A stretch of DNA of 64,000 nucleotides from a phage, in the NCBI GenBank assembly GCA_024674815.1, contig GCA_024674815.1_4104.1. One strand, 5' to 3'. Below are positions 1,269 to 15,708 of this stretch, piece after piece. The notes under the pieces are model-generated. The model was not told where the DNA came from and made no database searches. It worked only from the letters and a program-made list of their open reading frames with translations. The position numbers and the translations under genes were made by a program. Position 1 is the stretch's first letter; each line of letters opens with the position of its first letter.

Positions 1269-1365
1269 GTACTTTTTAAAAATAGTTTTCAGTACTAGCC
1301 ACCAGCAAACAATAGATACATTTATGCACCCTGTGGGCTGATTTGTTTCTATGCGTATATAATAG

Positions 1366-1397: not shown

Positions 1398-1405
1398 AAA
1401 TATTT

Positions 1406-1725: not shown

Positions 1726-1831
1726 TTTATTACTCCTGATTGCGTTAATACTTCTACTATTGCATGAATGATCATAAGTACAGCTAAAACAATAATCATC
1801 GGATTCATTTGCATAAGCTGTACTCCTTATA

Positions 1832-2044: not shown

Positions 2045-2061
2045 TTTTCTTTCCTCTCAGT

Positions 2062-2121
2062 GGGGAGAATCATTTCTCCCCTTCATGTAACTTATTATAC
2101 AGTACTAGATTATCTTGTCAA
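2062..2121 (-). promoter_or_regulatory. PeSL-like cassette
   Basis: TTGACA-16-TATAAT; hairpin GGGGAGAAAUGAUUCUCCCC. Confidence 0.6.
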
Positions 2122-2127
2122 TAGTTT

Positions 2128-2451
2128 TTATTCACCTTGTTTGAATTTAGTTTTCTCCATTGATTCCATGATTGCAACCAATACACCGTGGATCTCGCTT
2201 AACGCGGAATCACTAAAAGCATTAATGAATAGTCGATCATTCTCGCGAATATTTTTAATGTACTTTTCAGCAGTAGTTGCGAATTCATTCAACGGTAGAT
2301 CAAATGCTTTATCCCATGATGGATGGCGTAATTGTAACAGTACTGGATTATCACGATCACCAGGGGAAAACGTACCAGTGATGAAACATACGCCCGGAAT
2401 ACTTTCGAACTGGCAACGGACTTCCTTTGTGATAGTAGTATGAATGTACAT
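2128..2451 (-). CDS. hypothetical protein (107 aa)
   Basis: ATG ORF, 27 nt after upstream gene (co-transcribed). Confidence 0.55.
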   Translation of the reverse strand: MYIHTTITKEVRCQFESIPGVCFITGTFSPGDRDNPVLLQLRHPSWDKAFDLPLNEFATTAEKYIKNIRENDRLFINAFSDSALSEIHGVLVAIMESMEKTKFKQGE

Positions 2452-2478
2452 TTATTGTTATCCTCTATTAAATTAATA

Positions 2479-2673
2479 TTACAGTTTATGAATCAATTCT
2501 TTATCTAAGCGATAGCGTACATTATTAATAGTAACGGCATTGTTTTTAATGCTACGCTGTACAGGTCCACCAGCAATAACAAATGTTGCTTTATTACCCC
2601 GAACAATGATAGCACTTCCAGGATTACCGAAATCATCTTGTACTAAAATACTTGATAAGTTTTCCATTTTCAT
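2479..2673 (-). CDS. hypothetical protein (64 aa)
   Basis: ATG ORF; cassette upstream. Confidence 0.5.
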   Translation of the reverse strand: MKMENLSSILVQDDFGNPGSAIIVRGNKATFVIAGGPVQRSIKNNAVTINNVRYRLDKELIHKL

Positions 2674-2685
2674 TTCCTCTTAGTA

Positions 2686-2742
2686 GGGGAAGATGTTTCC
2701 CCTTGATGTAAGTACTATAACACTACTGAAAACTAAATGCAA
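2686..2742 (-). promoter_or_regulatory. PeSL-like cassette
   Basis: TTGCAT-16-TTATAG, hairpin GGGGAAACAUCUUCCCC. Confidence 0.5.
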
Positions 2743-2745
2743 GTA

Positions 2746-3102
2746 CTATGATAAAATCATGATAGGATATTCACTATCGATCAGTACCTCGAATCCGAAA
2801 CCTTCGTACCATTCTTTAAGATTAAAGGCGTTATCTTCTCCCGTATCGCATTCTAAAATGATACAATCTGAATCATCGGCGGCATCAATAAAGGCATTCA
2901 TTAATTCGTTACCTTCACCATTGCCCCGACTATCAGGATCAACATAAAGAGAATCAATAAACGCTACACGGTCATAATCAAGATCCGGTGCAATGATTCC
3001 ACGTTTCACAAACCAGTACTGCAATTGTGCTACTTTGCCCTGTACTTGATAGCCAGTGATCTCGCCATTGTCAGTAGTACGCGTGATATGTTGTATTCCC
3101 AT
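2746..3102 (-). CDS. GNAT-like acetyltransferase fold protein (118 aa)
   Basis: motif VDPDSRGNGEGNELM resembles GNAT motif A. Confidence 0.45.
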   Translation of the reverse strand: MGIQHITRTTDNGEITGYQVQGKVAQLQYWFVKRGIIAPDLDYDRVAFIDSLYVDPDSRGNGEGNELMNAFIDAADDSDCIILECDTGEDNAFNLKEWYEGFGFEVLIDSEYPIMILS

Positions 3103-3131
3103 GATTACTATCCTCAGTTAAGATATAAAAC

Positions 3132-3159
3132 ATTATACACTATCTTTCAGTACTGTCAA
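3132..3159 (-). promoter_or_regulatory. sigma70-type promoter
   Basis: TTGACA-16-TATAAT. Confidence 0.5.
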
Positions 3160-3165
3160 TACTTT

Positions 3166-3423
3166 TTATCTCATAGATCTATGCCAACAATTACGCGGAT
3201 CTCTTTTAAAAGTACTATCATGATCCTCCTGGCAAGTAATACAATACATGCACCCTATAACGGCCTGGCGTCGATTCTCAGGGATTTTATCGCCGCAGTC
3301 GAGGCAATGTACTAGTGATTCTCTTTGTGCGTTAATTTGCTTTCTAGCGTGGTTAACGGCTGCCTGAATCACTGCATGAATCTCGTCTTGTTCGGCCCCG
3401 TCTTTCGCGTATCCTACTGCCAT
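3166..3423 (-). CDS. TraR/DksA-family C4 zinc-finger protein (85 aa)
   Basis: CLDCG...x17...CMYCITCQ (CxxC-x17-CxxC). Confidence 0.6.
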   Translation of the reverse strand: MAVGYAKDGAEQDEIHAVIQAAVNHARKQINAQRESLVHCLDCGDKIPENRRQAVIGCMYCITCQEDHDSTFKRDPRNCWHRSMR

Positions 3424-3584
3424 TATTTTAACCTCATTATAAAAATACTATAGTACTGTAATGCTACAATAATACTACTAGTGCTAATCTTATTCAAACC
3501 ATATGATACTACATATCCACCAGCATTACCACGGATAGTAACTCCTTTGTACTGTCTATATAAATTCAACTGCGTATATTGCCT

Positions 3585-3657
3585 TTGATCAAGAATTGAT
3601 CAGAATTATACGCCTTATGCTAAATTGATCCAGTACTTTTTTGATCATTTATTGATC
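3585..3657. repeat. cluster of five TTGATC motifs (GATC-rich tract)
   Basis: 5 copies of TTGATC in 73 bp in an ORF-free leader. Confidence 0.5.
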
Positions 3658-3719
3658 GATATTATATAGTTACATTTGTGCACCCTATGGGTTAGTGACG
3701 TTCTCGTCTTGATGTAAGT

Positions 3720-3748
3720 ATTATGCCAGTACTGGATAATATTGTCAA
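3720..3748 (-). promoter_or_regulatory. sigma70-type promoter followed by conserved leader motif
   Basis: TTGACA-17-CATAAT; motif CACTAACCCAUAGGGUGC ~25 nt downstream. Confidence 0.5.
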
Positions 3749-3752
3749 TAGA

Positions 3753-3950
3753 TTATTTTAATTTTTTTCTGTCATTGATTAATGCTTTCAGTACTATACT
3801 AATAACTTGCAATGATTCATCAATGACAATGAAATTATTCTCTTTCATTAGATGATAGTTACCATTGATTGTATATTCTAACGAGTACTGTTTACGTTTA
3901 ATTTTTGATAATGTTTCTATTTGTTTTTGTACTGATTTCATGCTAATCAT
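3753..3950 (-). CDS. hypothetical protein (65 aa)
   Basis: track start is TTG; first ATG at 3950 used. Confidence 0.45.
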   Translation of the reverse strand: MISMKSVQKQIETLSKIKRKQYSLEYTINGNYHLMKENNFIVIDESLQVISIVLKALINDRKKLK

Positions 3951-4055
3951 TGTCAAACGTCCTGTAACGCATTCTAACGAGATAAACGGTTTAGTACTGG
4001 CATTGTATAGGGTAAATGATTAAAGCCCACCAGCGTTGACCAGTGGGCTATAATC

Positions 4056-4199
4056 TTACATCTTGCGGATAATCTTAACAGTATCTTTCACCGATTTACC
4101 GTCTTGCTGACATTGCTCGATCATCGCGTATTGTTCTGCGGTCAGATCCTCGCCAGTTTTTGCCAGTACTGCGTCGATGAATGAATCCAGTGCGATCAT
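4056..4199 (-). CDS. small hypothetical protein (47 aa)
   Basis: hand-translated ATG ORF; TTGACA-17-TATAAT promoter upstream. Confidence 0.35.
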   Translation of the reverse strand: MIALDSFIDAVLAKTGEDLTAEQYAMIEQCQQDGKSVKDTVKIIRKM

Positions 4200-4289
4200 T
4201 TTATTTCTCTCTTAGGTTAAGTTAACTACTGTTTATAAAACTTATTATACAGTACTATCAAACTATGTCAATAGTACTGGTAATATATT

Positions 4290-4469
4290 TTAGCGGTAGT
4301 CGTCGTATGCTTTATTCACCTGGCGAATATAACTTTCAAAGGCTTCGTCTACCGTTTCATACTCCCGAACATAATCACCATATGAAACTACATACATACC
4401 TTTTTGATCTTCAAACGTCATGATGATAGAATCCAGACCAACGATTTCAGTTTTTGCGATGATAGCCAT
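4290..4469 (-). CDS. small hypothetical protein (59 aa)
   Basis: hand-translated ATG ORF with upstream promoter. Confidence 0.4.
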   Translation of the reverse strand: MAIIAKTEIVGLDSIIMTFEDQKGMYVVSYGDYVREYETVDEAFESYIRQVNKAYDDYR

Positions 4470-4551
4470 TTTTAATTCCTTAATAGTGTAGTTGATAAAA
4501 GTTATTATGTCAGTACTATCAAACTATGTCAATAGTACTGTGATAATATTT

Positions 4552-4764
4552 TTAGTTAATGATAGTCAGTGTAAAATTGTAATCACCGCAGCGATATAGC
4601 ACGTTATTCCCAAATGTTCCAACTAATCGCACATCACACAAAACGCCGGTTTTTTCTTTTACTTCCTTGATACTTGTAACTCCTGTAATATCTTTATTAA
4701 AGTATTCATGATCTGAAAATAAAACTTGTTTTGCATTTTTTAATTTCGACCGGATATTAGCCAT
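4552..4764 (-). CDS. hypothetical protein (70 aa)
   Basis: ATG ORF; cassette upstream. Confidence 0.5.
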   Translation of the reverse strand: MANIRSKLKNAKQVLFSDHEYFNKDITGVTSIKEVKEKTGVLCDVRLVGTFGNNVLYRCGDYNFTLTIIN

Positions 4765-4784
4765 TTTGTTTTCTCTCTGTTAGT

Positions 4785-4844
4785 GGGGAGAATCATTTCT
4801 CCCCTTGATGTAAACTATTATACAGTACTATAATCTATTGTCAA
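4785..4844 (-). promoter_or_regulatory. PeSL-like cassette
   Basis: TTGACA-16-TATAAT; hairpin GGGGAGAAAUGAUUCUCCCC. Confidence 0.6.
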
Positions 4845-4859
4845 ACTATTTTTTTAATA

Positions 4860-5201
4860 TTATTCAAAATCTTCCGGTACTGACTGATAATCATCTTCAC
4901 CGTATGCACTTTCTAACCGCTCGCCAGTGTGATCATCAGTTAGTGAGTCATCCTCATAGTTCACGTCTACGCCAGTGATGTAAAACTGGCTATCGTCTGG
5001 ATCATTGAAATTAATTTTCTGTATGTTTACAATAACTGTATTGATACCCAGGACACTGCCATCAGCCGTTACAAAGTACTGATATTTTTCACAACCGCCT
5101 GAATTGAAACCGTAATTAATTTCGGCCCGACCATCATTTAAACGCAGTGCCTGGGCGATGATTTCATTTTCAAAGTTAGATTGAGCAATTGAGATAGTCA
5201 T
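4860..5201 (-). CDS. acidic hypothetical protein (113 aa)
   Basis: ATG ORF, D/E-rich. Confidence 0.55.
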   Translation of the reverse strand: MTISIAQSNFENEIIAQALRLNDGRAEINYGFNSGGCEKYQYFVTADGSVLGINTVIVNIQKINFNDPDDSQFYITGVDVNYEDDSLTDDHTGERLESAYGEDDYQSVPEDFE

Positions 5202-5221
5202 GATTTGTTTCCTTATTACCA

Positions 5222-5280
5222 GGGGAAACCGTTTCCCCTTTCGATGTAAAACATTATACGCTTATCAGGAAGTAATGCAA
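5222..5280 (-). promoter_or_regulatory. PeSL-like cassette
   Basis: TTGCAT-15-TATAAT; hairpin GGGGAAACGGUUUCCCC. Confidence 0.55.
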
Positions 5281-5283
5281 GTA

Positions 5284-5751
5284 CTATTTCACGTTAATTT
5301 CAAAGTACTGCTCTTTGATGTTTTCCTGTTGGTAAATCTCGTTTAATGCTTTAAGATCTAAAACCTGTTTACCTGCTGCCTGAATATACTTTTTAAGAGT
5401 CGCTAACAGCTTCTCAGGCGTGTTTGTAGTCTTACGTGTTGGGATCTTATCGTGCCCCATAGCGTAGTACTGCTTACGTGCTATAGTACTGATAACACTG
5501 CGGTACGGTTCCATGATCAGCTTGTCTGTGTATTCGTCGCTATCCCCAAACTTCATACCGTGGATCGCAAAGGTCATCATCATGCGGTCGTTATCGCGGA
5601 TATTGTGGGGGCAGTCGGCAAGCTCGCGAGTCAGTGACATAGTGATCCCCACGTCGCCACCCAGCGGTAAAGGTCGGGCGATAAAGAAACCGTTAGGGAA
5701 TACTTTCAGGAAGTTTTCTTGAACTGCTGCGACGAATTCGATGCTATTCAT
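5284..5751 (-). CDS. hypothetical protein (155 aa)
   Basis: ATG ORF. Confidence 0.6.
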   Translation of the reverse strand: MNSIEFVAAVQENFLKVFPNGFFIARPLPLGGDVGITMSLTRELADCPHNIRDNDRMMMTFAIHGMKFGDSDEYTDKLIMEPYRSVISTIARKQYYAMGHDKIPTRKTTNTPEKLLATLKKYIQAAGKQVLDLKALNEIYQQENIKEQYFEINVK

Positions 5752-5771
5752 AATTCATTTCCTTAATTAGT

Positions 5772-5831
5772 GGGGGAAGTTGTTTCCCCTCTCGATGTAA
5801 AACATTATACGCTTATTGAGATAGTTTGCAA
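5772..5831 (-). promoter_or_regulatory. PeSL-like cassette
   Basis: TTGCAA-16-TATAAT; hairpin. Confidence 0.55.
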
Positions 5832-5944
5832 GTACTTTCTACAAATACTTTTAAAATAGTTTTCAGTACTCAAACATTATACAATAGATACACTCCTGCA
5901 CCCTGTGGGCTAGTGAGCTATCTCTCAATGAATATATAATAGCA

Positions 5945-5975
5945 AACTGGCTGACCGAAGTCAACCACTTTTTCA
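5945..5975 (-). terminator. terminator hairpin with UUCG loop, TTGACT -35 embedded
   Basis: GGUUGAC-UUCG-GUCAGCC in minus transcript; TATTAT 17 nt downstream. Confidence 0.5.
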
Positions 5976-6110
5976 TTTATTTTTAGCTTTTAGAATCGCC
6001 GCCTTTCGCGTCATGCCTTGCTTGATGTACTCCTTTACTTTCGCTTTTTTAGCGTTTACCTTGTCTGCTTTCGTTTTAGGAGTACTGTAAATTATACCGT
6101 TAGGATTCAT
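5973..6110 (-). CDS. small basic protein (45 aa)
   Basis: hand-translated ATG ORF, Lys-rich. Confidence 0.3.
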   Translation of the reverse strand: MNPNGIIYSTPKTKADKVNAKKAKVKEYIKQGMTRKAAILKAKNK

Positions 6111-6196
6111 TTAAATCACCATAAAGAATAGATAGGTTACTAACAACGCCGCGATCAATGCACCGACCAGGGCCGAACTATAGTAAGCTAATGATT

Positions 6197-6349
6197 TCAT
6201 TTTTTAGCCTGAAAGTAATGTTTAATTTGAGCGGCGGTCAGTGCACAATTACGCAGGAAGTTTTCTGTATAACTTTTGCGAGTACTGAAAGAGAATTGAC
6301 CTTTGCCGTTACCGATAGTAACATCAAACCGAGCGTTGTATTGTTTCAT
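6197..6349 (-). CDS. small hypothetical protein (50 aa)
   Basis: ATG with AGGAGA SD; track start is an AUG inside the leader hairpin. Confidence 0.4.
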   Translation of the reverse strand: MKQYNARFDVTIGNGKGQFSFSTRKSYTENFLRNCALTAAQIKHYFQAKK

Positions 6350-6367
6350 TTTGATTCTCCTGTTATT

Positions 6368-6427
6368 GGGGAGAATCATTTCTCCCCTTCATGTAAACTA
6401 TTATACAGTACTAAAAACTAATTGCAA
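6368..6427 (-). promoter_or_regulatory. PeSL-like cassette
   Basis: TTGCAA-16-TATAAT; hairpin. Confidence 0.55.
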
Positions 6428-6430
6428 GTA

Positions 6431-6577
6431 TTATTTTTTAGATTTACGTAAACTTTCTACCATCTCAGGAGTAAGCCCCAGCGGGTAGGAAACCACTTCA
6501 TCCACAAAACGCAAAGGGAATACCCCATCTAAAGTTGAACGTGCTTTCTTATTAGTACTCTTTTTTGATGCTTTCAT
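6431..6577 (-). CDS. small hypothetical protein (48 aa)
   Basis: hand-translated ATG ORF; cassette upstream. Confidence 0.4.
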   Translation of the reverse strand: MKASKKSTNKKARSTLDGVFPLRFVDEVVSYPLGLTPEMVESLRKSKK

Positions 6578-6646
6578 TTCATATTCCTTAATTAGTGGGG
6601 AGAACTATTTCTCCACTTCATGTAAACTATTATACAGTACTAAAAA

Positions 6647-6856
6647 CTAATTGCAAGTATTATTTTCTAAAAAATGTTTGTATGCTGAATCAACAACTCT
6701 TTCGATAACATACGCTAACGGCACGTATCCAACTACATGACTACAATAAAAAGGACTACGATTAGAATCATCGTATGCAAATACTTTTTCAGGATCTGCA
6801 TCAATCACATACATATTAACCTTTAAGATGTCGATCTTATCCTGTACAGTAAGCAT
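6647..6856 (-). CDS. hypothetical protein (69 aa)
   Basis: ATG ORF. Confidence 0.5.
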   Translation of the reverse strand: MLTVQDKIDILKVNMYVIDADPEKVFAYDDSNRSPFYCSHVVGYVPLAYVIERVVDSAYKHFLENNTCN

Positions 6857-6861
6857 ATTAA

Positions 6862-7134
6862 TTAACCTTTTAAGTACTGGCTTAAGTAGTCTTTTTGATC
6901 TTCGGTGATTGCAGTCATCTTCCCTAGTACTGGATTAATGATATAATCCCCTGTAACGTCCAGTACAGCATTCTCAGGCTGTTTAACGGCAGGGGTAGCC
7001 ATAGCCATCGCCTGGACTTGTTCGACGCTGTAACGCTCATAAAGGCGGCATTCTTCCGGTGTTAACATAGCATCAATACGTTTCATTGGTTTAATGATGC
7101 TTTCAACTTCATTTAGTACTTGATTAACGTTCAT
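6862..7134 (-). CDS. hypothetical protein (90 aa)
   Basis: ATG ORF. Confidence 0.55.
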   Translation of the reverse strand: MNVNQVLNEVESIIKPMKRIDAMLTPEECRLYERYSVEQVQAMAMATPAVKQPENAVLDVTGDYIINPVLGKMTAITEDQKDYLSQYLKG

Positions 7135-7185
7135 GGTATAATCCCCAATATAAGCGGCCTAAATCGACCACTAACGATGATTTGA

Positions 7186-7455
7186 TCAATAGGTGTATGG
7201 TTGACGCTCAAACAATGATTGCACGTTGTACGCCCCGCTAATGGGCTTAGCTGGCAAATCAATTTTATATTGTTCACGCTTAAAGATAATAAAACGGCAA
7301 TTGTTTTTAACATCAAAATTGATTGAACGTTCCAGGAGTTTACCATCGTGCACAAATACAAGATAACCGCTTGCTACTTGTTTTGTAGTACTGGTTGCAA
7401 CCATAGACCGCCGAACATGTGTACCTGCATCGATTAAAGTACTGATATTTTTCAT
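7186..7455 (-). CDS. hypothetical protein (89 aa)
   Basis: ATG ORF; TTGACA-17-CATAAT promoter at ~7487-7515. Confidence 0.5.
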   Translation of the reverse strand: MKNISTLIDAGTHVRRSMVATSTTKQVASGYLVFVHDGKLLERSINFDVKNNCRFIIFKREQYKIDLPAKPISGAYNVQSLFERQPYTY

Positions 7456-7534
7456 TTTAGTTTCCTTAGTTGTCTTGATAAAATCTATTATGCCAGTACT
7501 ATCAAACTATGTCAATAGTACTGTGATAATATTT

Positions 7535-7678
7535 TTACTTACTTTTTGCTTTCTTGATTGCTTCCACCTGGTCGGCCCATTCTTTACCCCATACTTGTAA
7601 ATTATAATGGTACTGGCAAAGAGCAACGCCCCGCTTTAAACCCGTAATAGATTTCTGACCACATTGACAAGTTTTCAT
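7535..7678 (-). CDS. small Cys-rich protein (47 aa)
   Basis: hand-translated; C-x-C ... C-x2-H pattern. Confidence 0.4.
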   Translation of the reverse strand: MKTCQCGQKSITGLKRGVALCQYHYNLQVWGKEWADQVEAIKKAKSK

Positions 7679-7695
7679 ATTAGTTTCCTTGTAGT

Positions 7696-7756
7696 GGGGA
7701 GAACCATTTTCTCCCCTTGATGTAATGTATTATACTTTATTCGATTTACTTTGCAA
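7696..7756 (-). promoter_or_regulatory. PeSL-like cassette
   Basis: TTGCAA-16-TATAAT; hairpin GGGGAGAAAAUGGUUCUCCCC. Confidence 0.55.
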
Positions 7757-7765
7757 GTACTTTTT

Positions 7766-7993
7766 TTAATTTAATTCATCAAGGCAAAGGATACGCTCAA
7801 CGCCCAAATCAGTTAAACTAATCGACGGCACTTGATAGGTTTCAATGTATGCTACACTTGCCCACTGACCGAACTCATTAACGGCCCAGGTATTCATTGC
7901 ATTTTGCAATTCCGCACCTTCCTTGTTGGTAATGACTGCAACTACTTGTTCGTTGCCAGTAGTACCAGATACGCGAGTAATGATAATAGCCAT
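7766..7993 (-). CDS. hypothetical protein (75 aa)
   Basis: internal ATG downstream of cassette hairpin. Confidence 0.5.
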   Translation of the reverse strand: MAIIITRVSGTTGNEQVVAVITNKEGAELQNAMNTWAVNEFGQWASVAYIETYQVPSISLTDLGVERILCLDELN

Positions 7994-8230
7994 TGTTTTG
8001 ATTCCTTTGATTTGGAAGGAGAACCGTTTCCCCCTCTCGATGTAAAACATTATACGCTAATCTCTTAATCGTGCAAGTACTTTTTATTACTTTTTGCAAA
8101 ATACTTTAAACGCTCTCAATCGCGTTCTTACAGCCTTAACGCCACCAGCTAGGGCAATGCATCAGATAATCAGTTTAATGCGTTAGAATCGTTTCTAGGC
8201 GGTGCTGGTGGCATGGTAAACTATAAACAC

Positions 8231-8256
8231 AAAAAAGCCCACCGTTTAAGGTGGGC
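8231..8256 (-). terminator. intrinsic terminator
   Basis: GCCCACC-uuaaac-GGUGGGC then U6 in minus transcript. Confidence 0.6.
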
Positions 8257-8278
8257 TAGTGATTCAATACTTTAATTG

Positions 8279-8761
8279 TTATGCTTCAACTTTGCGATGA
8301 GCTTCGATCCATTCCTCGCGAGTCATACCGCTTTCTTTGATAGCGTCCAGTACTACCGCAATGCAGTTACCGCGTACAGGAATCAAATGTTCTTCACCGT
8401 TATCAAGTACTACAGTAACACGTTCTTGAATCCATTTTTTAGGTTTAGATTCCGGCTTATCTTCACCGTACTTAACCGCCAGGGCTTTATGTGCCATTTC
8501 AACAACCACTTCCAGATCCAATCCAGACACCGCCGCCTGGATACTTTCAATTGTTGCTTGCAGTTCGGCTTCACGGGCTTTTTTCTGTTCTTCCAGTTCT
8601 GCTACCTTTTTGGCTTGTAATTCTTTCGCTTCACTGTAAGCAATGTTAAAATTGTTGCGTACAGCTTTCATGGTATCGTTATCCAGGTCAGCCAGCAATT
8701 CAGCAGCAATAACAGTATCGTTTGAAATCAGTGCTTTCAGGAATGATTTTACATTAGCCAT
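8279..8761 (-). CDS. hypothetical coiled-coil protein (160 aa)
   Basis: ATG with GAGGA SD; track start is TTG. Confidence 0.6.
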   Translation of the reverse strand: MANVKSFLKALISNDTVIAAELLADLDNDTMKAVRNNFNIAYSEAKELQAKKVAELEEQKKAREAELQATIESIQAAVSGLDLEVVVEMAHKALAVKYGEDKPESKPKKWIQERVTVVLDNGEEHLIPVRGNCIAVVLDAIKESGMTREEWIEAHRKVEA

Positions 8762-8956
8762 TTTATAAATCCTCAATTAAAGTTTAGTTTACGTTTATTA
8801 GTGTATCAAAGTTTTATCGACGTGTCCAGTTTTTCGTTCGACTTACTGGCGGTCTACTTAGTGCTCCCCGTCTTGATGTAATACATTCTACGCCTTTTTG
8901 TGGTAATGTCAACTACTTTTTTAAAACTATTTTTAAAGTATGCAGTACTACAAAAC

Positions 8957-8982
8957 AAAAAAGCCCACTGTTTAAGGTGGGC
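8957..8982 (-). terminator. intrinsic terminator (copy of 8231-8256)
   Basis: same hairpin + U-run. Confidence 0.6.
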
Positions 8983-9000
8983 TAGTGATTCAGTACTATA

Positions 9001-9300
9001 TTATAAACAGTTAATTACTCCGGTGTGCGTTACTTTCTCAGTATCCATAACCGTGACCGATCCACGCTTAGTACTTGCATCATAATAAATTGTTGTGCTA
9101 CCGTTTTCGTCTTCTTCATGGAACGGCCCGTTTTTAAATGCTTCTGGCTGGATCTCTAAATCCTTTAAAACAATCTCGCCTGTACTTTCATTGGTCATCG
9201 CTACCGTGCACTGAATGAATTTTTCACTACTTACATCTAACGACGCATTAACAGCGAAAGAGGAAACAGATAAAGCCAGGGCGATGATTGCAATTTTCAT
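9001..9300 (-). CDS. secreted/periplasmic small protein (99 aa)
   Basis: N-terminal signal-peptide-like MKIAIIALALSVSSFA. Confidence 0.6.
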   Translation of the reverse strand: MKIAIIALALSVSSFAVNASLDVSSEKFIQCTVAMTNESTGEIVLKDLEIQPEAFKNGPFHEEDENGSTTIYYDASTKRGSVTVMDTEKVTHTGVINCL

Positions 9301-9320
9301 TTGATTATCCTTAGTTACCA

Positions 9321-9379
9321 GGGGAAACCGTTTCCCCTTGCGATGTAAAATATTATACAGTACTAAAAACTAATTGCAA
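9321..9379 (-). promoter_or_regulatory. PeSL-like cassette
   Basis: TTGCAA-16-TATAAT; hairpin. Confidence 0.55.
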
Positions 9380-9384
9380 GTACT

Positions 9385-9621
9385 TTATGATTTTTTATAA
9401 AACATTTCGGCAGTGATATTTTTACCCGTTGGTTGTACTTTATCCAGAATTTTTTGATGCCCTGGCCGTCCAAATGAATATGATCCGTAAACCGTAAACC
9501 AGTAGTTACCCTCAGTGTTTACATGTACAGCACAATAGGGAACGCCCCGCGATTCATCACCAATAAAGTGTGATACCGTTCCCGTTACATTAGCAGACGT
9601 TGATTTGATTTGTTCAAGCAT
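9385..9621 (-). CDS. hypothetical protein (78 aa)
   Basis: ATG ORF; cassette 9643-9694. Confidence 0.5.
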   Translation of the reverse strand: MLEQIKSTSANVTGTVSHFIGDESRGVPYCAVHVNTEGNYWFTVYGSYSFGRPGHQKILDKVQPTGKNITAEMFYKKS

Positions 9622-9728
9622 TTTCTTATTCCTTAGTTACCAGGGGAACCGCTCCCCTATGCAAAACATTATACGCGTTTAAAAACTATTAGCAAGTATT
9701 TTAATAAAAAGTATTTGAAAAATAGTTG

Positions 9729-9757
9729 TTGACAAGTGCATCCAGTACTGGCATAAT
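9729..9757 (+). promoter_or_regulatory. plus-strand sigma70-type promoter
   Basis: TTGACA-17-CATAAT on plus strand, no ORF downstream. Confidence 0.5.
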
Positions 9758-9763
9758 TACTAC

Positions 9764-9868
9764 ATCAAGACGAAACAGTCACTAACCCACCGGGTGCCGA
9801 GATCCGTCTATTAAATGATTCAGTACTGAAAAAGTAACGGGGAGTTATTATCTCCCCGCGTTGTTATT
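9764..9868 (+). ncRNA. candidate ~100-nt small RNA
   Basis: promoter 9729-9757, conserved CACUAACCCACCGGGUGC motif, hairpin+U-run terminator 9838-9870. Confidence 0.3.
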
Positions 9869-10085
9869 TGGTAAGGTATAAACAGAAGTCACCTTTATTT
9901 GCTACGCCGCCAGTGTAACGCGATGAATAGTTAGAAATATCTTGTACTTCTGCTATTACCAGTGTATCATCATTCATTTCGTCGCAGAAGCAAACGGCTG
10001 GATCTTTTACGCCGATATTGTCTGCATGTTCCCGCATAGATTTAACCAGTGCTTCCAGTTGAGAAAGAGTAGTGATATTAGCCAT
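9864..10085 (-). CDS. hypothetical protein (73 aa)
   Basis: ATG with GAGGA SD; cassette 10105-10163. Confidence 0.5.
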   Translation of the reverse strand: MANITTLSQLEALVKSMREHADNIGVKDPAVCFCDEMNDDTLVIAEVQDISNYSSRYTGGVANKGDFCLYLTK

Positions 10086-10169
10086 TTTATTTTCCTCATT
10101 ACCAGGGAGAACCATTTCTCCCCTTGATGTAAACTATTATACAGTACTAAAAACTAATTGCAAGTACTT

Positions 10170-10358
10170 TTAATTAAATTCCATAAAATCATTTTCAACG
10201 TGCACAACAATCTGATTATTTTTAAAGGACGCAGAAAACTCTATACAATCATAAACCGCTTTTTCTGTTACCAGACTATGAGCACCAATCGGATTAATTG
10301 GGGATTGAATTGTTTCAATCTCGTTACCTTGTTCATTAACGATTAAAATATTAAACAT
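10170..10358 (-). CDS. hypothetical protein (62 aa)
   Basis: ATG ORF. Confidence 0.45.
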   Translation of the reverse strand: MFNILIVNEQGNEIETIQSPINPIGAHSLVTEKAVYDCIEFSASFKNNQIVVHVENDFMEFN

Positions 10359-10397
10359 TGCCGTTACTCCTGGATAGTGTTAACTCGATATAAAGTA

Positions 10398-10580
10398 TTA
10401 TACGCCTTTATTGCTTAGTGTCCAGTGATCACGCATCATACGCCCCGCACGATCCCAGCTAGTAGGCATGGGTATGCCTTGCAATTCGTTAGGGGAGATC
10501 TCGACCTCGATCCCTACATCAATAACAGTCATTCCAGCTTTCGCAGCTTGCTCGCGGATAACCTCAGATAATGTTGTCAT
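10398..10580 (-). CDS. hypothetical protein (60 aa)
   Basis: ATG ORF. Confidence 0.45.
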   Translation of the reverse strand: MTTLSEVIREQAAKAGMTVIDVGIEVEISPNELQGIPMPTSWDRAGRMMRDHWTLSNKGV

Positions 10581-10654
10581 GATTAAAGCTCCTGGATAGT
10601 GTTAACTCGATATAAAGTATTATACAGTACTGAAAACTAATTGCAAGTACTTTT

Positions 10655-10915
10655 TCAATATTGTTTGTCGTTGTCTTCCTCGATGAATTGACCGACGAAA
10701 TGATCTACTTTCGCTTTGAGGCTTTTATAATCTTCTTCTACTTCCTTTAAACGTTCCTGGTAGTATTCCAGGGCTTGAATATACGCCGCCTCAGCAGTTT
10801 TTGCACGCATAGCTAAATTCATTCCACGCGTTTCATCAAATAGCCAATAACCATCGGTGCAATGACTGATAGATAATGATTTACTTAGTACTGTATAGGC
10901 AATTACTTTACTCAT
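10655..10915 (-). CDS. hypothetical protein (86 aa)
   Basis: ATG ORF. Confidence 0.5.
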   Translation of the reverse strand: MSKVIAYTVLSKSLSISHCTDGYWLFDETRGMNLAMRAKTAEAAYIQALEYYQERLKEVEEDYKSLKAKVDHFVGQFIEEDNDKQY

Positions 10916-10972
10916 TAGATAACCCTCAGTAAAGGCGGGAACTATTACCCGCCATTATCTCAGTACTGAATA

Positions 10973-11212
10973 TTACATTCCAACCATTGCAGCACGGATC
11001 GCAGTAGTGCTATACTTAAAGCCGTCCGGCGTTGTAGTAGTACCGTTGGCTTTTAATCTGCGGTACATACATTCCGCAGCAATATCTTTAGTTCTACTTT
11101 GTGCGATGCAACTTTGAGCAAGCCGATACAATGACTCACCGTTATTAATCCAAAGGCTTACATTCCAATGAGTTTTGTTTTTGTGTCCGTTGTAAGTTTT
11201 AGTACTAGCCAT
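10973..11212 (-). CDS. hypothetical protein, paralog A of 13014-13253 (79 aa)
   Basis: shared GHKNKTHWNVSLWINN and TPDGFKYSTTAIRAAMVGM termini. Confidence 0.55.
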   Translation of the reverse strand: MASTKTYNGHKNKTHWNVSLWINNGESLYRLAQSCIAQSRTKDIAAECMYRRLKANGTTTTPDGFKYSTTAIRAAMVGM

Positions 11213-11230
11213 TTTTAAATCCTCGTTTGA

Positions 11231-11290
11231 GCGGGGAACCACTCCCCGCCTCGATATAAAGTATTATACGCTTTTAAACTTAGTTTGCAA
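11231..11290 (-). promoter_or_regulatory. PeSL-like cassette
   Basis: TTGCAA-16-TATAAT; hairpin GCGGGGAGUGGUUCCCCGC. Confidence 0.55.
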
Positions 11291-11302
11291 GTACTTTTTA
11301 AA

Positions 11303-11914
11303 TTAATATTCGATTGATTCCACTACTCCATCAATAACATTGAATTGATATTCGTTACCCTCAATCAGTGCTGTAATGTTTTCAGTAGTGAATTGATCCT
11401 CATATGCATTCTCTAAATCACGGTACAACTTGCGGGATAATTCACGAATAGTTTCAGTGAGTAGTTCCTCAAGCTCATTAACTAACGTTTCTTGTTTTGC
11501 GGTTAAATCAGTGTAAGCCGATTCAATGTACCCGCTTACAGTATTCTCATGCGAGTAGTGGGAGTGCGAACGCTTTACACTCATCGCCAAATCATCTTCA
11601 TTCAGCAAGTGACGGATTGAGCGATACTTAGTTAATGCTCTTACCTTGCGTAAAAACTTCACTGCGTCAACGTGGTCAGTACTGATTGATGCACCGTCAC
11701 CCTGGGACCAAAAGCCACTGAATCGTAAATCAGCGTCAGTAATGCCATATTCCGGTAGTACTGTTTCTTTATAGTATTCAATTTCACTTTCAGAAAAATA
11801 ATCATCGTTTAAGTTTTTTTCACGTTCCCGAACCAGTTCGATAGCTGACGTTTGTTGTTCTGCGTTCAATTCAGAAAAAGCCATAACATAAGTAGTAGTA
11901 GTGATAGTTTTCAT
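11303..11914 (-). CDS. acidic hypothetical protein (203 aa)
   Basis: ATG ORF, D/E-rich. Confidence 0.6.
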   Translation of the reverse strand: MKTITTTTYVMAFSELNAEQQTSAIELVREREKNLNDDYFSESEIEYYKETVLPEYGITDADLRFSGFWSQGDGASISTDHVDAVKFLRKVRALTKYRSIRHLLNEDDLAMSVKRSHSHYSHENTVSGYIESAYTDLTAKQETLVNELEELLTETIRELSRKLYRDLENAYEDQFTTENITALIEGNEYQFNVIDGVVESIEY

Positions 11915-11984
11915 TTTGTAACCCTCATTCAGTAGTTGATGTAAGTATTATACGCTTTTAAAAACAATTGTCAAACTATTTTAT

Positions 11985-12060
11985 CAGGGGAGTTTTTCGT
12001 GTGCCTTACTCCTGGGCTACTTAATGGGGAGTTACTTATTTCGTTCCCCGTCCTGATGTA
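11985..12060 (-). other. conserved structured leader element (copy 3)
   Basis: near-identical to 1163-1234. Confidence 0.4.
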
Positions 12061-12139
12061 AAACATTATACGCCTTTAAACATAGTTTGCAAGTACTTTT
12101 TAAAAATAGTTTTCTGTACTGAATAGTAAAAAAAAAGTA

Positions 12140-12168
12140 TTGACAGCATTATCAAGTACTGGCATAAT
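12140..12168 (+). promoter_or_regulatory. plus-strand sigma70-type promoter
   Basis: TTGACA-17-CATAAT; conserved motif downstream. Confidence 0.5.
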
Positions 12169-12283
12169 ATACCCCATGACAACAGCTAACCCACCGGGTG
12201 CACAATTGTAACTGTAATAAACTACTTTTTCTATAGATACACTCCCGCACCCTATGGGCTACGGCTTATCTGCCAATGAATAC

Positions 12284-12312
12284 ATTATGCCAGTACTGAC
12301 AAAATAAGTCAA
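12284..12312 (-). promoter_or_regulatory. minus-strand promoter convergent with 12140-12168
   Basis: TTGACT-17-CATAAT; conserved motif downstream. Confidence 0.5.
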
Positions 12313-12342
12313 TACCGGCAATTGTAAAGATTTGTAAACTGC

Positions 12343-12573
12343 TTATACTGCAATCGCGTCCAGGCTGTAATAATAATAAGTGCCGTATTGGTGTACTTTA
12401 TTACCTTTTATTTCAGTACTGAATGAATCCGAACGGTTTGCATATGATGTTAATTTAAAGTACTTTGATTTGCTGATACGTTGCCATACACCACAGATCC
12501 GCTGTAAGTAAGTAGTTTTATTCGTGGTAGTATCTTTTACGGTTTTAACTTCAGTCATATACATATTAGTCAT
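12343..12573 (-). CDS. hypothetical protein (76 aa)
   Basis: ATG ORF; cassette 12595-12653. Confidence 0.5.
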   Translation of the reverse strand: MTNMYMTEVKTVKDTTTNKTTYLQRICGVWQRISKSKYFKLTSYANRSDSFSTEIKGNKVHQYGTYYYYSLDAIAV

Positions 12574-12660
12574 TTTTATTACTCCAGGTTATAGGCGGGA
12601 AGAGTTCCCGCTCTCGATGTAAAACATTATACGCCTTTAAACATAGTTTGCAAGTACTTT

Positions 12661-12927
12661 TTATTCAAGTACTGCAATCTTTTTAGTACGGTACACGGTC
12701 ACGCGGTTGCCCTTTCGGTCGAGCTTTATTTCTACCACTCGACGCGATACACTATCGGGACTTTTTAAGGCCGCTAACCAGTACTGTAATGATCTGGCGG
12801 TACTACGCTTTACAATGGCCCAACGTTTACCACGTTCCGATTGTACGCCCATATCTTTAAACGTTGCCCCGTCCTGGCGAGCGGCGATCCGAGCTTGTTC
12901 ACGCGTCGCAAAATACTTAATATTCAT
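12661..12927 (-). CDS. basic hypothetical protein (88 aa)
   Basis: internal ATG; track start is GTG in promoter. Confidence 0.45.
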   Translation of the reverse strand: MNIKYFATREQARIAARQDGATFKDMGVQSERGKRWAIVKRSTARSLQYWLAALKSPDSVSRRVVEIKLDRKGNRVTVYRTKKIAVLE

Positions 12928-13013
12928 GCTGTTGCCCTTATCGTTGGTGTATGAATAAAACACTATTATAAAGTACTATCGCAAAAAAATGATAGTACTT
13001 TAAATAAATTCTA

Positions 13014-13253
13014 TTACATTCCAACCATCGCCGCACGGATCGCAGTAGTGCTATATTTGAATCCGTCCGGTGTTTTATCTTGTCCAGTCTGTTCTAAAAA
13101 TAACATCATATGACGGGCCGCATCATTGCGATTAGTGCTATCGTTAATAAAGTCCTGGGCCAACCGGTATAATGATTCATCGTTATTAATCCAAAGGCTT
13201 ACATTCCAATGAGTTTTGTTTTTGTGACCTAAGAACATTTTTGATTTAGCCAT
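13014..13253 (-). CDS. hypothetical protein, paralog B of 10973-11212 (79 aa)
   Basis: conserved termini, variable middle; cassette 13273-13330. Confidence 0.55.
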   Translation of the reverse strand: MAKSKMFLGHKNKTHWNVSLWINNDESLYRLAQDFINDSTNRNDAARHMMLFLEQTGQDKTPDGFKYSTTAIRAAMVGM

Positions 13254-13345
13254 TTTTTAATCCTCTTATATAGTGGGGAACTATTCCCCACCTGATGTAA
13301 AACATTATACGCTTTTAAACTTAGTTTGCAAGTACTTTATTAAAC

Positions 13346-13708
13346 TTATTTGTAAATTTTGCCACTGTCAGCCCATACCAGGAAACGAGGCATATTATCC
13401 CATGCATCTTGTTTTAAGTTTAAGCCGTGCAATTCCTCAGTTGTTGCCATCCCTGGTACTGGCTTACTACACACCGCGAAATTTTCGCCCATGTACTGAT
13501 AAACCATCGTTAAATCATTTGAGATCATTACATGGATCATTGAATCAAGCATCAAAGTAGCGGCGTATTGTTCACGCTTAAGCGGCAACATTGCAATAAG
13601 TTCCCGATAAGCTGCAATGTGAATTTTTACAGTTTCAGCCGGAAGACCTTTCATCTCATCGCGGAAGTTTACCAGGTTAAGCATGATTTTATTGATTTGA
13701 GTCGCCAT
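13346..13708 (-). CDS. hypothetical protein (120 aa)
   Basis: internal ATG after cassette hairpin 13733-13749. Confidence 0.55.
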   Translation of the reverse strand: MATQINKIMLNLVNFRDEMKGLPAETVKIHIAAYRELIAMLPLKREQYAATLMLDSMIHVMISNDLTMVYQYMGENFAVCSKPVPGMATTEELHGLNLKQDAWDNMPRFLVWADSGKIYK

Positions 13709-13823
13709 CGTTTTAATCTCTCTTAATGTGTAGCGGGAAGTGTTCCCGCTCTCGATGTAAAACATTATACGCTTTTATCAGTACGGTGCAAGTACTTTCT
13801 ACAAATACTTTTAAAATAGTTTT

Positions 13824-13919
13824 CTTTCTATATAGGAGTACTATTATTCAGTACTGAATCAATCCAGGGGAACTATCTTTCTATATAGGAGTACTATTAT
13901 TCAGTACTGAATCAATCCA
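13824..13919. repeat. 2 x 43-bp direct repeat
   Basis: unit TCTTTCTATATAGGAGTACTATTATTCAGTACTGAATCAATCCA twice, 53-bp period. Confidence 0.6.
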
Positions 13920-14071
13920 CCAAATCACTACTACACCCCATAAAACGGCCTCAGACGCATTCTAACGCATTAATACACATAAGCTATACATTTGCACCAT
14001 TCCAATCATTCCAGGGCTTTACAGGCCGTTTAAACGCGTTAAATTATTTTCAATTATTTTGTTTTTAGGTA

Positions 14072-14099
14072 TTGACTTGATCCTGAAAAAGCGTATAAT
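14072..14099 (+). promoter_or_regulatory. plus-strand sigma70-type promoter
   Basis: TTGACT-16-TATAAT. Confidence 0.5.
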
Positions 14100-14103
14100 T
14101 ACT

Positions 14104-14165
14104 ACATAGACGCGAGAAAGCGGAAACCCCAGAGGGTGCGGAATTACGCCCAAAATTCAAGATAT
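14104..14165 (+). ncRNA. candidate small RNA A
   Basis: own promoter; shares GAGAAAG..GGGUGC..UUACGCCCAAAAUUCA with 14318-14380. Confidence 0.3.
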
Positions 14166-14287
14166 AAAAAAAGGATACACTCCCGCACCCTAGCAGGTAA
14201 ACGCACTTTCTCAGTACTGAAATATAGTACCATAGTCCGGCCCAGGATAGCAAGCAAATTAATTAAAACTTTTTTGCTTCCAGGGTA

Positions 14288-14315
14288 TTGCTTTATTTTT
14301 TCAGTACTGTATAAT
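14288..14315 (+). promoter_or_regulatory. plus-strand promoter
   Basis: TTGCTT-16-TATAAT. Confidence 0.45.
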
Positions 14316-14317
14316 AG

Positions 14318-14380
14318 TTCCATCAAGTCGAGAAAGACTCAAGCCCACCGGGTGCATAGTTACGCCCAAAATTCAGTACT
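14318..14380 (+). ncRNA. candidate small RNA B (paralog of A)
   Basis: conserved sequence blocks with 14104-14165. Confidence 0.3.
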
Positions 14381-14534
14381 GAAAAATTTTTAAAAATATC
14401 CGGCCAGGTCGTTGACATTGCCCCCAGTTTATAAGATAATGATTCCAGATTCAGAAAAATCTAACTACAGATACTGCGGGGAAACTATCCCCACGCGGTA
14501 GGGGAACTATTGGAAAAACAAAATAAAATTTTGA

Positions 14535-14680
14535 TTTAGCCGTCTATACTTCCAGACGTGTAACCATCTAGCCGTTTAGCCGTCTAGCCATCCAGCCATC
14601 CAGAAATCTAGCCGTTTAGCCGTCTAGATGGATAGCCATCTTTACTTCCAGACTTCTGGAGGGCTAGACATATCTACGTC
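14535..14680. repeat. iteron-like short direct/inverted repeat array
   Basis: repeated TAGCCGTCT/AGCCATCC units, palindrome CCATCTAGATGG, CTTCCAGAC x2. Confidence 0.5.
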
Positions 14681-15708
14681 CAAAATCCATCCAGGGTAAC
14701 TACACCCAAAATCCGTCAGTACTATACCATAGATCTATCTTTTGAAAGGGAGTATTCAGTACTGCCATCATAGCCCTCACTATGTTACCCTAGGAGGATG
14801 AAGACTATCATGTAGTACTGAATACTGTTAGAGGGAATCCACCAGCTTGTGCTGGTGGCATAATGCTTTAGATTAAAATCAGTACTGACACCATTCTGTT
14901 AATATCAGTACTGTTATTACAATTTTCATATGAGGTTCAAAAAGATGTACCACCACAGGAGGAACTATCTTTTCTGTACTGTCTCACGACAGGAGGTAGA
15001 GTAAATGAATTGTTCGCAGCAACTCATCTCTCTATGTAGAACATTATACAGTACTGAATCATAATGTCAATAACTTTCTTTCACCATTCAGTACTGATAT
15101 TCTTGAGAACTACCCGTCTACAAACATCATTATATCCCACAAATCATAAACGTCCCAACGTAAATTTCAACTTTCGAAGATCCAACTTTTATTTCATAGG
15201 TACTCCAAAATTTTTAGGATCGAGATTTAGGATGGAGTACTAACCAACTTTTTGCTGGAGCCTCAAGGGGTAATTGAATTTTACCCCGAAGGGTAAAAGG
15301 GTAATTGTAATTAAGGTGAAAGTAATAATTCAGTACTAATCATTGCGTGATTACTTTTGATTACATTTGATGTAATTTGCAAAATGGAAAAGGAGCTTGG
15401 AAACTACAAAGTACGGCAGACTTCCTCTGCCTACTTAGTGGCATATCAGTACTGAATCATTCACACACATTTCCGTGCATTCTTGAGCAATCTTGTCTAT
15501 ACTAATCAGTACTGAATCATATATAATCATTCTGTGATTCTACGGTGCTCATATAAATGTTTATATATGATTACTTATGACTACCTATGATTACGGGGTT
15601 TAGCCTGGGGAGAATCCTAGTGATCGCATTTGTCCAGGCTGAATTTTAACAATTCGCCTGTACATAAAGGTTGTTCACTAGGAGCTTCCCCTGTCTCTAT
15701 GTGTTTAA

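Follow-up and report, generated by a model that had tools for sequence, protein, structure and literature searches.

What is the role of two strong promoters that face each other across a short stretch of a phage genome? The question is raised by positions 12140-12312 of contig GCA_024674815.1_4104.1 (GenBank assembly GCA_024674815.1), a phage sequence of 64,000 nucleotides that is called the window below. An earlier note on this DNA proposed that the two promoters form an antisense or transcriptional-interference switch. Here, we describe the pair as two members of a repeat family. Sequence comparison indicates that each member, or unit, carries a near-consensus sigma-70 promoter at a fixed distance from a conserved structured motif, and the pair very probably represents two copies of a transcribed, structured RNA family. 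With less confidence, we favor the more specific reading that it comprises two tail-to-tail copies of a small transcription unit, which is repeated in the early-gene region within the long terminal repeats of Rak2-like phages.

The 800 bp around the site match Asteriusvirus jumbo coliphages (fEgEco12, BF17, slurp01, PBECO4, and 121Q) at 98-99% identity and, to judge from these matches, the window belongs to an Asteriusvirus of the PBECO4/121Q type. The plus-strand promoter (12140-12168; TTGACA, 17-nt spacer, TGgCATAAT) scored 11 of 12 in the promoter scan and the minus-strand promoter (12284-12312; TTGACT, 17-nt spacer, TGgCATAAT) scored 10 of 12. Both share the AGTACTGG-CATAAT architecture with a TG-extended -10 element, and an A9 tract just 5' of the plus-strand -35 element (12129-12137), the length of which differs among orthologues, resembles an UP element on that strand. 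Because promoter-like matches are common in this AT-rich region (22 found, compared with 15.2 +/- 4.2 in shuffles), the scan alone is not significant. The evidence that the facing arrangement is non-random comes from three other observations. First, the promoters are inverted copies of each other over 35 nt (12137-12171 / 12281-12315). Second, both -35 elements, both -10 elements and the AGTACT(G) box in each spacer are kept in all eight Asteriusvirus orthologues (the minus-strand promoter is invariant), despite the exchange of the transcribed leaders between them. Third, a match to a covariance model of the unit RNA follows each promoter at the distance typical of the family, with E = 4e-4 for the plus-strand unit, B, and E = 1.8e-12 for the minus-strand unit, B'. 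The facing promoters described in the earlier note were thus supported.

Transcription is predicted to start at A12176 on the plus strand and at A12277 on the minus strand, and the two RNAs would be complementary over approximately 102 nt provided that neither ends earlier, as the earlier note had anticipated. The pairing within one transcript that it had pointed out, between GGGTGC (12196-12201) and GCACCC (12247-12252), was present in the minimum-free-energy folds of both predicted transcripts (-28.7 kcal/mol, z = -4.5; for the minus-strand RNA, -38.5 kcal/mol, z = -3.5). It had also placed two copies of a conserved motif at the site, and this holds in either sense of the motif: AGTACT(G) occurs in both promoter spacers (12155-12161 and, as CAGTACTG, 12291-12298), and the box CCCAnnGGGTGC occurs once per strand (12190-12201, plus; 12258-12247, minus). 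The GGGTGC/GCACCC stem arises because two copies of this invariant box stand inverted, and not as a separately selected helix. As a selected long-range structure it was rejected, since, among the orthologues, the dinucleotides that vary within one box do so without matching changes in the other, and only about half of the pairs known to us match perfectly.

The unit RNA has a constant layout. After the promoter, CAU is found at the expected start, followed by a hairpin (H1), a spacer of 3-4 nt, the box (CCCAYAGGGUGC, invariant in the family), six variable nucleotides and six nucleotides of the form N-Y-R-Y-Y-Y. All 49 true copies first collected possess a promoter scoring 8-12 of 12, with its -10 element ending 20-30 nt before the box, and the CAU at the expected start. 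H1 consists of 3-5 bp capped by a loop rich in purines, which is 4-9 nt and in most copies 6-8 nt long (AGAUAA, AGAACAA, GCGAAA, or GAGAAA), and 12 of the 49 copies instead have a shorter A/C-rich leader with no clear H1. Unit B' (RNA 12231-12278, minus strand; 53.2 bits) follows the complete layout: (C)AU, H1 (UGGC-AGAUAA-GCCG), UAG, the box CCCAUAGGGUGC, the loop GGGAGU, GUAUCU and AUAG. Unit B (RNA 12176-12217, plus strand; covariance-model match 12175-12217, 22 bits) belongs to the short-leader class and consists of CAUGACAACAGCUAA, the box CCCACCGGGUGC, the loop ACAAUU and GUAACU. In the eight orthologues of the pair, both promoters and both boxes are retained and leaders are swapped for other versions capable of forming H1; these are AUUG-AAACGAA-CAAU in 121Q, A4, and TH47 and, for unit B, the long form GAC-GAGAAA-GUC in WPEC3 and EJP2.

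The pattern of substitution points to selection on the RNA. In a gapless alignment of 16 copies of equal length, which was not fitted to structure and from which the covariance model was built, all four H1 pairs changed on both sides, 96.9% of cells were paired, and 0 of 500 shuffles reached the observed pairing or covariation. Over 74 distinct copies, 94.7% of the H1 cells were paired, 100 cells were compensatory and at least 15 different stems occurred. Further, 37 of 37 long-leader units possessed a hairpin of at least 3 bp, compared with 51% of shuffled leaders. The strand following the box pairs with GGGUGC to form a second helix (H3), in which 89-90% of cells were paired, compared with 35-64% when the partner was slid. 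Variation in H3 takes the form of U or C opposite G and of A or G opposite U, and about half of the pairs are G-U; such pairing is therefore impossible on the opposite strand or in DNA, where these positions are mismatches. A third element, H2 (RCCC-loop-GGGU), was 98% paired with a loop of 3 or 4 nt of variable sequence, and phage CBB shows one CCU/AGG double change that retains the pair. Pairing of the H1 loop (AGAUA) with the 3' strand (UAUCU) as a pseudoknot, which appears in the single-sequence minimum-energy fold and fits the B' subfamily, was rejected as a general feature because, on inspection, copies with AGAACAA or GCGAAA loops cannot form it.

These data bear on the simplest alternative, namely that the site holds chance promoter-like sequences or a small protein-coding gene (minus-strand ORF 12152-12250, 32-aa product). 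Promoter-like hexamers are indeed common in AT-rich DNA, and GenBank records of some relatives annotate hypothetical proteins of 30-38 aa over the units and promoters (window 12066-12182, 12152-12250, and 11971-12066, minus strand). In contrast, chance does not account for the E-values of the two model matches, and the covarying hairpin and invariant 12-mer are not codon-like. The ORF has a GTG start with no ribosome-binding site, and a 7-nt indel together with the leader swaps disrupts its frame. A coding reading of the 32-38-aa ORFs over the pair was rejected on the same grounds, the annotations are probably false gene calls, and we give this alternative almost no weight.

In the window, the family is confined to one part of the sequence. 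The box matched nine sites in the window at no more than 2 mismatches (0.69 expected), and the covariance model, with all filters off, found exactly nine copies at E <= 0.007, all within 1,310-14,371; the next match had E = 0.18. All nine lie inside the part of the window that belongs to the terminal repeat. When the records of relatives were mapped onto the window, the end of the repeat fell at approximately 15.44 kb, which places the pair inside a direct terminal repeat of approximately 21 kb, and in records carrying the right-hand repeat copy the sequence is continuous across the 15.44-kb point. In phage vB_Ec-M-J, the stretch matching the site is annotated within a 21.5-kb direct terminal repeat, and the terminal repeat of fEgEco12 comprises 20,993 bp according to PhageTerm, a finding that restriction digests corroborated (PMC13070987).

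The model yielded 81 matches over the window and related loci; the 74 distinct ones come from Rak2-like phages that infect Escherichia, Klebsiella, Cronobacter, Pectobacterium, Salmonella, and Erwinia. The copies of CBB occupy 1.0-20.9 kb of its 22.5-kb repeat. Exact-word scans of IMG/VR found true units on Rak2-like contigs of 100-380 kb only. Box matches elsewhere in IMG/VR (35 of 67 matches) served as a negative control, in which the best promoter at the right distance scored at most 7 of 12 and no H3 was present; exact 15-mer matches outside Rak2-like contigs were likewise dismissed as chance, as they lack both promoter and H3. The part of B' from the promoter to GUAUC is 79-88% identical (BLAST) in Klebsiella RaK2 and K64-1, Cronobacter GAP32, Pectobacterium CBB, Salmonella Munch, and Erwinia Hallingskeid. 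On this distribution, we regard the minus-strand unit B' as old. The plus-strand unit B is an insertion specific to Asteriusvirus.

No match to Rfam 15 at the gathering score and no tRNA or tmRNA gene (ARAGORN) was found in the 64-kb window. At E <= 10, the 9600-14600 region gave five weak and unrelated Rfam matches, none on a unit RNA; one of them, to IS102 (12275-12516, minus strand, E = 1.6, well under the gathering score), overlaps the start and promoter of B'. The motif was not described in the searchable papers on CBB, fEgEco12, phAPEC6, PA5oct, promoter-early stem-loops or jumbo phages, which do mention RpoD-like promoters and terminal repeats. Together, the comparisons suggest that the family is a new RNA motif embedded in repeated early regulatory cassettes.

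Is the convergent arrangement itself a recurrent one? We surveyed the downstream context of 63 distinct units and found 23 in convergent pairs, 8 with an intrinsic terminator 57-88 nt past the box, 5 in which H3 leads straight into a U run, 9 with a strong promoter (and gene) on the same strand downstream, and 18 with none of these at the thresholds used; 40 of the 63 are thus unpaired. In 12 distinct pairs, the box-to-box gap was exactly 45 nt in seven, 63 nt in four, and 56 nt in one, and the 45-nt pairs are spread over Asteriusvirus, CBB, and two uncultivated relatives. The pair centers cannot be aligned and the start-to-start distance ranges over 101-127 nt, and therefore it is the distance between boxes, not that between promoters, that is held constant. 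Comparison of these pairs leads us to regard the convergent pair as a selected, recurrent architecture.

The centers of the pairs are often palindromic. AGTACT is central in three 45-nt pairs (CBB 20840, L014 3549, and L040 3714), and the pair described here has ACTACT (12221-12226), which differs from it by one mismatch, at the center of its 45-nt gap. In the 56- and 63-nt pairs, the center holds a Fur-box-like palindrome, (A)ATGATAATCATT or ATGAGAATCATT (L009 8050-8136, L018 6060-6139, L028 1248-1334, L040 996-1083, and L047 3082-3168), that matches 14-15 of 19 positions of the E. coli Fur consensus. This resemblance hints that the host iron regulator might bind between the units of such pairs. 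No Fur-box-like palindrome is present in the pairs of the window.

The window contains a second convergent pair (14072-14253), which has 19 identical nucleotides (GATACACTCCCGCACCCTA) in common with the first. Its left member, F (14072-14155, plus strand, 25.1 bits), is separated by a gap of 45 nt from its right member, F' (14166-14253, minus strand; a partial match, E = 0.007), which has the box CCUGCUAGGGUGC and an H3 followed by U7 that resembles a terminator (14191-14172). The other copies in the window are unpaired. A (9729-9875, plus strand, 37.9 bits) comprises a promoter, the unit, AGTACTG and an intrinsic terminator (hairpin 9839-9862 with a T-rich tail, -13.5 kcal/mol), and would be, from these features, a free-standing small RNA gene with a product of approximately 100 nt, antisense to the neighboring genes. 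Downstream of G (14288-14371, plus strand, 31.9 bits) lie AGTACTG and, at 14412, a promoter on the same strand. On the minus strand, the -35 element of E (5882-5964, 60.4 bits) falls within the terminator hairpin, with a UUCG loop, that belongs to the upstream gene, and E is followed by AGTACTG and a gene promoter; C (3664-3748, 32.1 bits) has a promoter of the AGTACTGGCATAAT type and the H1 GACG-AGAA-CGUC; and D (1310-1387, 34.9 bits) belongs to the short-leader class and has a terminator-embedded -35 element. The RaK2 equivalent of B', like window paralogue E, is followed directly by AGTAC(T/A)G and a gene promoter.

The features of a free-standing small RNA gene (promoter, no ORF, 50-300 nt, terminator) were found together in 8 of the 63 units, most clearly in paralogue A. 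B and B' have a promoter and no ORF, as in such a gene, and no terminator was found for them. The units with terminators of their own, together with units facing no gene, suggest that short RNAs are the end products of the family, rather than leaders of mRNAs.

With the family in view, the switch proposed in the earlier note can be weighed. In the form considered here, one promoter opposes the other and thereby sets the expression of the downstream gene 11303-11914, as in phage 186 (pR/pL) and P22 (Pant/Psar). In these systems and in E. coli SdsR/RyeA, face-to-face promoters 60-150 bp apart produce overlapping complementary transcripts; the two promoters are unequal in strength and are regulated differently, and the transcripts include at least one mRNA or defined regulator. 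The present pair is similar in its geometry, with strong face-to-face promoters approximately 102 bp apart and predicted transcripts that overlap and are complementary, so that interference by collision or RNA pairing would be expected, and this geometry recurs in the 12 distinct related pairs. Further, the minus-strand unit is co-directional with the genes and the plus-strand unit opposes them, as in the pairs of CBB, which likewise lie between co-directional genes, and, compared with RaK2 and window unit E, the inverted plus-strand unit has been inserted. However, both arms here are copies of one repeated unit that is mostly solitary elsewhere (nine copies in the window and more than 70 in the clade), the internal stem is a by-product of inverted boxes whose variable bases do not covary, and neither predicted transcript starts a reading frame. 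The common promoter design suggests co-regulation and not the antagonistic control expected of a switch, as one regulator would act on both arms alike. The downstream gene also has two promoters of its own (12092 and 11974). Thus, the geometry, internal pairing and complementarity on which the proposal rested were confirmed, and the site is not a unique switch; a dedicated antisense switch at the pair is possible, although we consider it unlikely.

For the reading that we prefer, two tail-to-tail transcription units, the following course of events can be proposed. The host sigma-70 RNA polymerase would fire the unit promoters immediately upon entry of the DNA, and each promoter would yield an abundant short non-coding RNA of approximately 50-150 nt that begins with H1 as a protective 5' hairpin. 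Within a pair, the polymerases would collide, or would meet the long hairpin formed by the two inverted boxes, and the 3' parts of the two RNAs would be complementary. Each paired unit may in this way limit the length of the other's transcript and block read-through between neighboring early genes. The block to upstream read-through is proposed because there is no terminator after ORF 12343-12573, and the downstream gene 11303-11914 would rely on the promoters at 12092 and 11974. The invariant box would most likely represent a specific protein-binding site on an abundant early RNA. That the two transcripts within the pair limit each other is the tentative part of this scheme, and we consider it somewhat doubtful.

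The missing terminator also invites a related explanation that applies to pairs only: inverted units within a read-through transcript would form a long interrupted helix of approximately 100 nt, which is cut by RNase III or blocks the polymerase. RNase III sites between the early genes of T7 provide the model. The minus-strand RNA does fold into an interrupted helix of approximately 35 bp with the energy given above, pairs lie between co-directional early genes, and the upstream gene 12343-12573 lacks a terminator; such a processing or insulator hairpin leaves unexplained the strong promoter in each arm and the commoner single units, and the box loops are perfectly matched in only about half of the pairs. 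We regard it as improbable.

The unit is conceptually closest to the promoter-early stem-loop (PeSL) cassettes of T4-type phages (Arbiol et al., 2010, PMC2839356; Comeau et al., 2014, PMC4122927). Both are repeated composite cassettes among small orphan early genes, with near-consensus sigma-70 promoters preceded by AT-rich tracts (here, the A9 tract), and both show signs of module exchange, in the case of the unit orthologues as leaders swapped between promoter and box. The adjacent GC-rich terminator stem-loop of a PeSL has a counterpart at some of the units, where it often contains the -35 element. This stem-loop (GGGGTTGACTTCGGTyrGCCCCTTTTG) is found at window units D and E and at the copies of many relatives, and is absent from both promoters of the pair, which are of the AGTACTGG-CATAAT type with no embedded terminator. 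We observed this compact, PeSL-like terminator-promoter composite at 1395-1359 and 5968-5936 (minus strand) and in many copies in L008, L013-L015, and L018; the UUCG-type-loop hairpin contains the -35 element of the next promoter, and the T-rich tail runs into its -10 element (GGGATTGACTCCGGTCAGTCCCTTTGCTATTAT). PeSLs differ in that they are defined by promoter and terminator and have no sequence similarity to the units; a conserved transcribed motif, a covarying 5' hairpin, an invariant 12-nt box and fixed-gap convergent pairing have not been described for them.

This likeness raises the alternative that promoter and box act at the level of DNA, as homology patches for the shuffling of early genes, and that the RNA has no function of its own. 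The repetition of units in a region of small orphan genes, the terminator-embedded -35 elements of many units, which correspond to the PeSL idea, and the swapping of leaders at orthologous loci between conserved promoter and box are all consistent with such a recombination cassette. Left unexplained are the compensatory changes in H1, the strand-specific G-U pairing in H3, the fixed distance between start and box, and the fixed gaps of 45 and 63 nt, and we consider this alternative unlikely, slightly more so than the switch.

The hairpins in turn call to mind antitermination. Small promoter-proximal RNA hairpins lie downstream of the early promoters of lambda, as nut (boxA/boxB), and of HK022, as put. 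A cis-acting leader of this type would modify RNA polymerase for read-through of the terminators of the early region. The units are promoter-proximal and made of small hairpins, their purine-rich H1 loops (GCGAAA, GAGAAA, and AGAUAA) recall boxB, and nine are followed by a same-strand gene promoter and gene; put could be compared by description only, as a 6-kb HK022 region contained nothing annotated as put. The units differ in that no boxA-like sequence was found in or near them, and in their orientation, pointing away from genes or at each other; boxA-like sequences are also not enriched (58 compared with 50.3 expected). In the window, A, B, F, and G (4 of 9) run counter to the minus-strand genes, which account for most of the repeat; there is no gene ahead of A, B, or F, and G is followed by a same-strand promoter. 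Further, one third of the units are convergent and would collide, and those with a strong terminator of their own resemble end products. There is little likelihood, in our judgment, that the units are antitermination leaders.

Several points weigh against our own reading, that of two tail-to-tail copies of a repeated RNA-producing unit. The promoter activity, RNA ends, and RNA stability of the units are all inferred from sequence. No terminator-like site was detected by the scan within 12140-12312, either between or just after the two promoters. The A9 tract, read on the minus strand, is a U9 tract after a weak A/U-rich hairpin (12122-12172, -5.7 kcal/mol, no better than shuffles), and U9 (12137-12129) is a possible weak stop for the minus-strand transcript. 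Unit B is the weakest match and has no H1 in this phage. As H2 and H3 share the same GGG, they are mutually exclusive alternatives, and because the 5' strand of H3 and the stem of H2 are almost invariant, they are supported by changes on one side and by one compensatory change. Single-sequence folds of the 47-55-nt units were no more stable than shuffles (z = -1.2 to +0.3); a non-significant folding energy of single sequences is common for small motifs. Finally, the conservation of the box could in principle serve a role at the DNA level, such as recombination or protein binding.

The pair occupies a gap of 430 bp that separates the small minus-strand ORFs 11303-11914 and 12343-12573. Seven neighboring early proteins matched solely families of unknown function in Pfam and PHROGs. 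Two of the small early proteins in the region (10973-11242 and 13014-13253, minus strand) are paralogues of the family DUF7249 / phrog_871; they and the promoter regions upstream of them make up a segmental duplication of approximately 190 bp at 79-89% identity. A second repeat family, with at least 10 copies on the minus strand within 9301-15086 (e.g., 12575-12663, 13253-13341, and 11212-11300), consists of an early-gene promoter (TTGCAA-16-TATAAT), GTTTTACATC, a GC-rich GGGGAAC...GTTCCCC hairpin, a ribosome-binding site, and a start codon. Almost all early genes have this conserved hairpin in their 5' untranslated region, where it may act as a stabilizer or operator.

Two other repeats were noted. 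A perfect 44-nt direct repeat (13823-13866 / 13876-13919, 53-bp period), with AGTACT twice per copy, separates the last early gene on the minus strand from the second convergent pair. At 14535-14670, within a 1.3-kb ORF-poor stretch and approximately 0.8-0.9 kb away from the point where the terminal repeat is inferred to end, there is an array with a period of 8 bp (TCTAGCCG / TTTAGCCG / TCCAGCCA ...) in 11 register-shifted copies, which may be related to packaging, replication, or DNA entry.

The AGTACT palindrome is abundant in the window as a whole. It occurs 267 times in 64 kb, compared with approximately 22 expected from base and dinucleotide content and approximately 100 from a third-order Markov model, and CAGTACTG occurs 56 times, compared with 0.8 expected. 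It is found in coding and non-coding DNA and is about twice as dense in the first 24 kb (e.g., 12155-12160, 12292-12297, 9744, 9822, 14303, and 14375). In many early promoters it lies in the spacer directly before the -10 element (AGTACTGGCATAAT and CAGTACTGTATAAT), in AGTACTTGCAA it is fused to the -35 element, and in 39 of 64 units it occurs no more than 25 nt past H3. A phage protein might bind AGTACT, or the palindrome could be a self-marking word or a site of modification.

Abundant non-coding RNAs have been reported from the terminal repeat of a jumbo phage. PA5oct produces ncRNA001 and ncRNA002 in its long terminal repeat, which are 236-451 nt in length, account for 2-5% of phage reads and were annotated without known promoters (PMC7318152). 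PA5oct has been placed in the Rak2-like clade as a more distant member, and the likeness lies in this high transcription of non-coding RNA from the repeat; on inspection, ncRNA001 differs in that it lacks the CCCAYAGGGTGC box and any other similarity to the units.

With nine copies per terminal repeat, a packaged genome would carry approximately 18 units, and their RNAs could be among the most abundant of the first minutes of infection. We may speculate that the CCCAYAGGGUGC hairpin serves as a decoy or sponge for a host factor (an RNA chaperone, ribonuclease, or defense sensor) or as a handle for a phage protein, and that the pairs, with their fixed 45- and 63-nt gaps and central palindromes resembling protein sites (AGTACT and Fur-box-like), are devices that produce RNA of defined length or double-stranded RNA without terminators. 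We think this unlikely, to about the same degree as the switch. A search of 185,579 bacterial and archaeal genomes (GTDB) for the conserved H1 16-mer CATTGGCAGATAAGCC as a host mimic or target yielded scattered single matches in unrelated taxa, as by chance, with no cluster in Enterobacterales among the matches listed. If true, the decoy or sponge reading, together with the approximately 12-fold excess of AGTACT, would represent a new RNA-based layer of host takeover in jumbo phages.

The Rak2-like jumbo phages have genomes of approximately 350 kb, in which approximately 80% of genes have no known function, and they are candidates for phage therapy. To our knowledge, no transcriptome of these phages is available, and their RNA level is almost unexplored. 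If expression is confirmed, the covariance model would be ready for annotating genomes in which pipelines call spurious 30-aa ORFs over the units, and the fixed-gap convergent pairs would lend themselves to the study of how identical strong promoters interfere with each other's transcription. The family would then constitute a clade-wide, multi-copy RNA motif, supported by covariation and tied to the strongest early promoters, and its products would be readily testable candidate early non-coding RNAs in host takeover or in the organization of early transcription.

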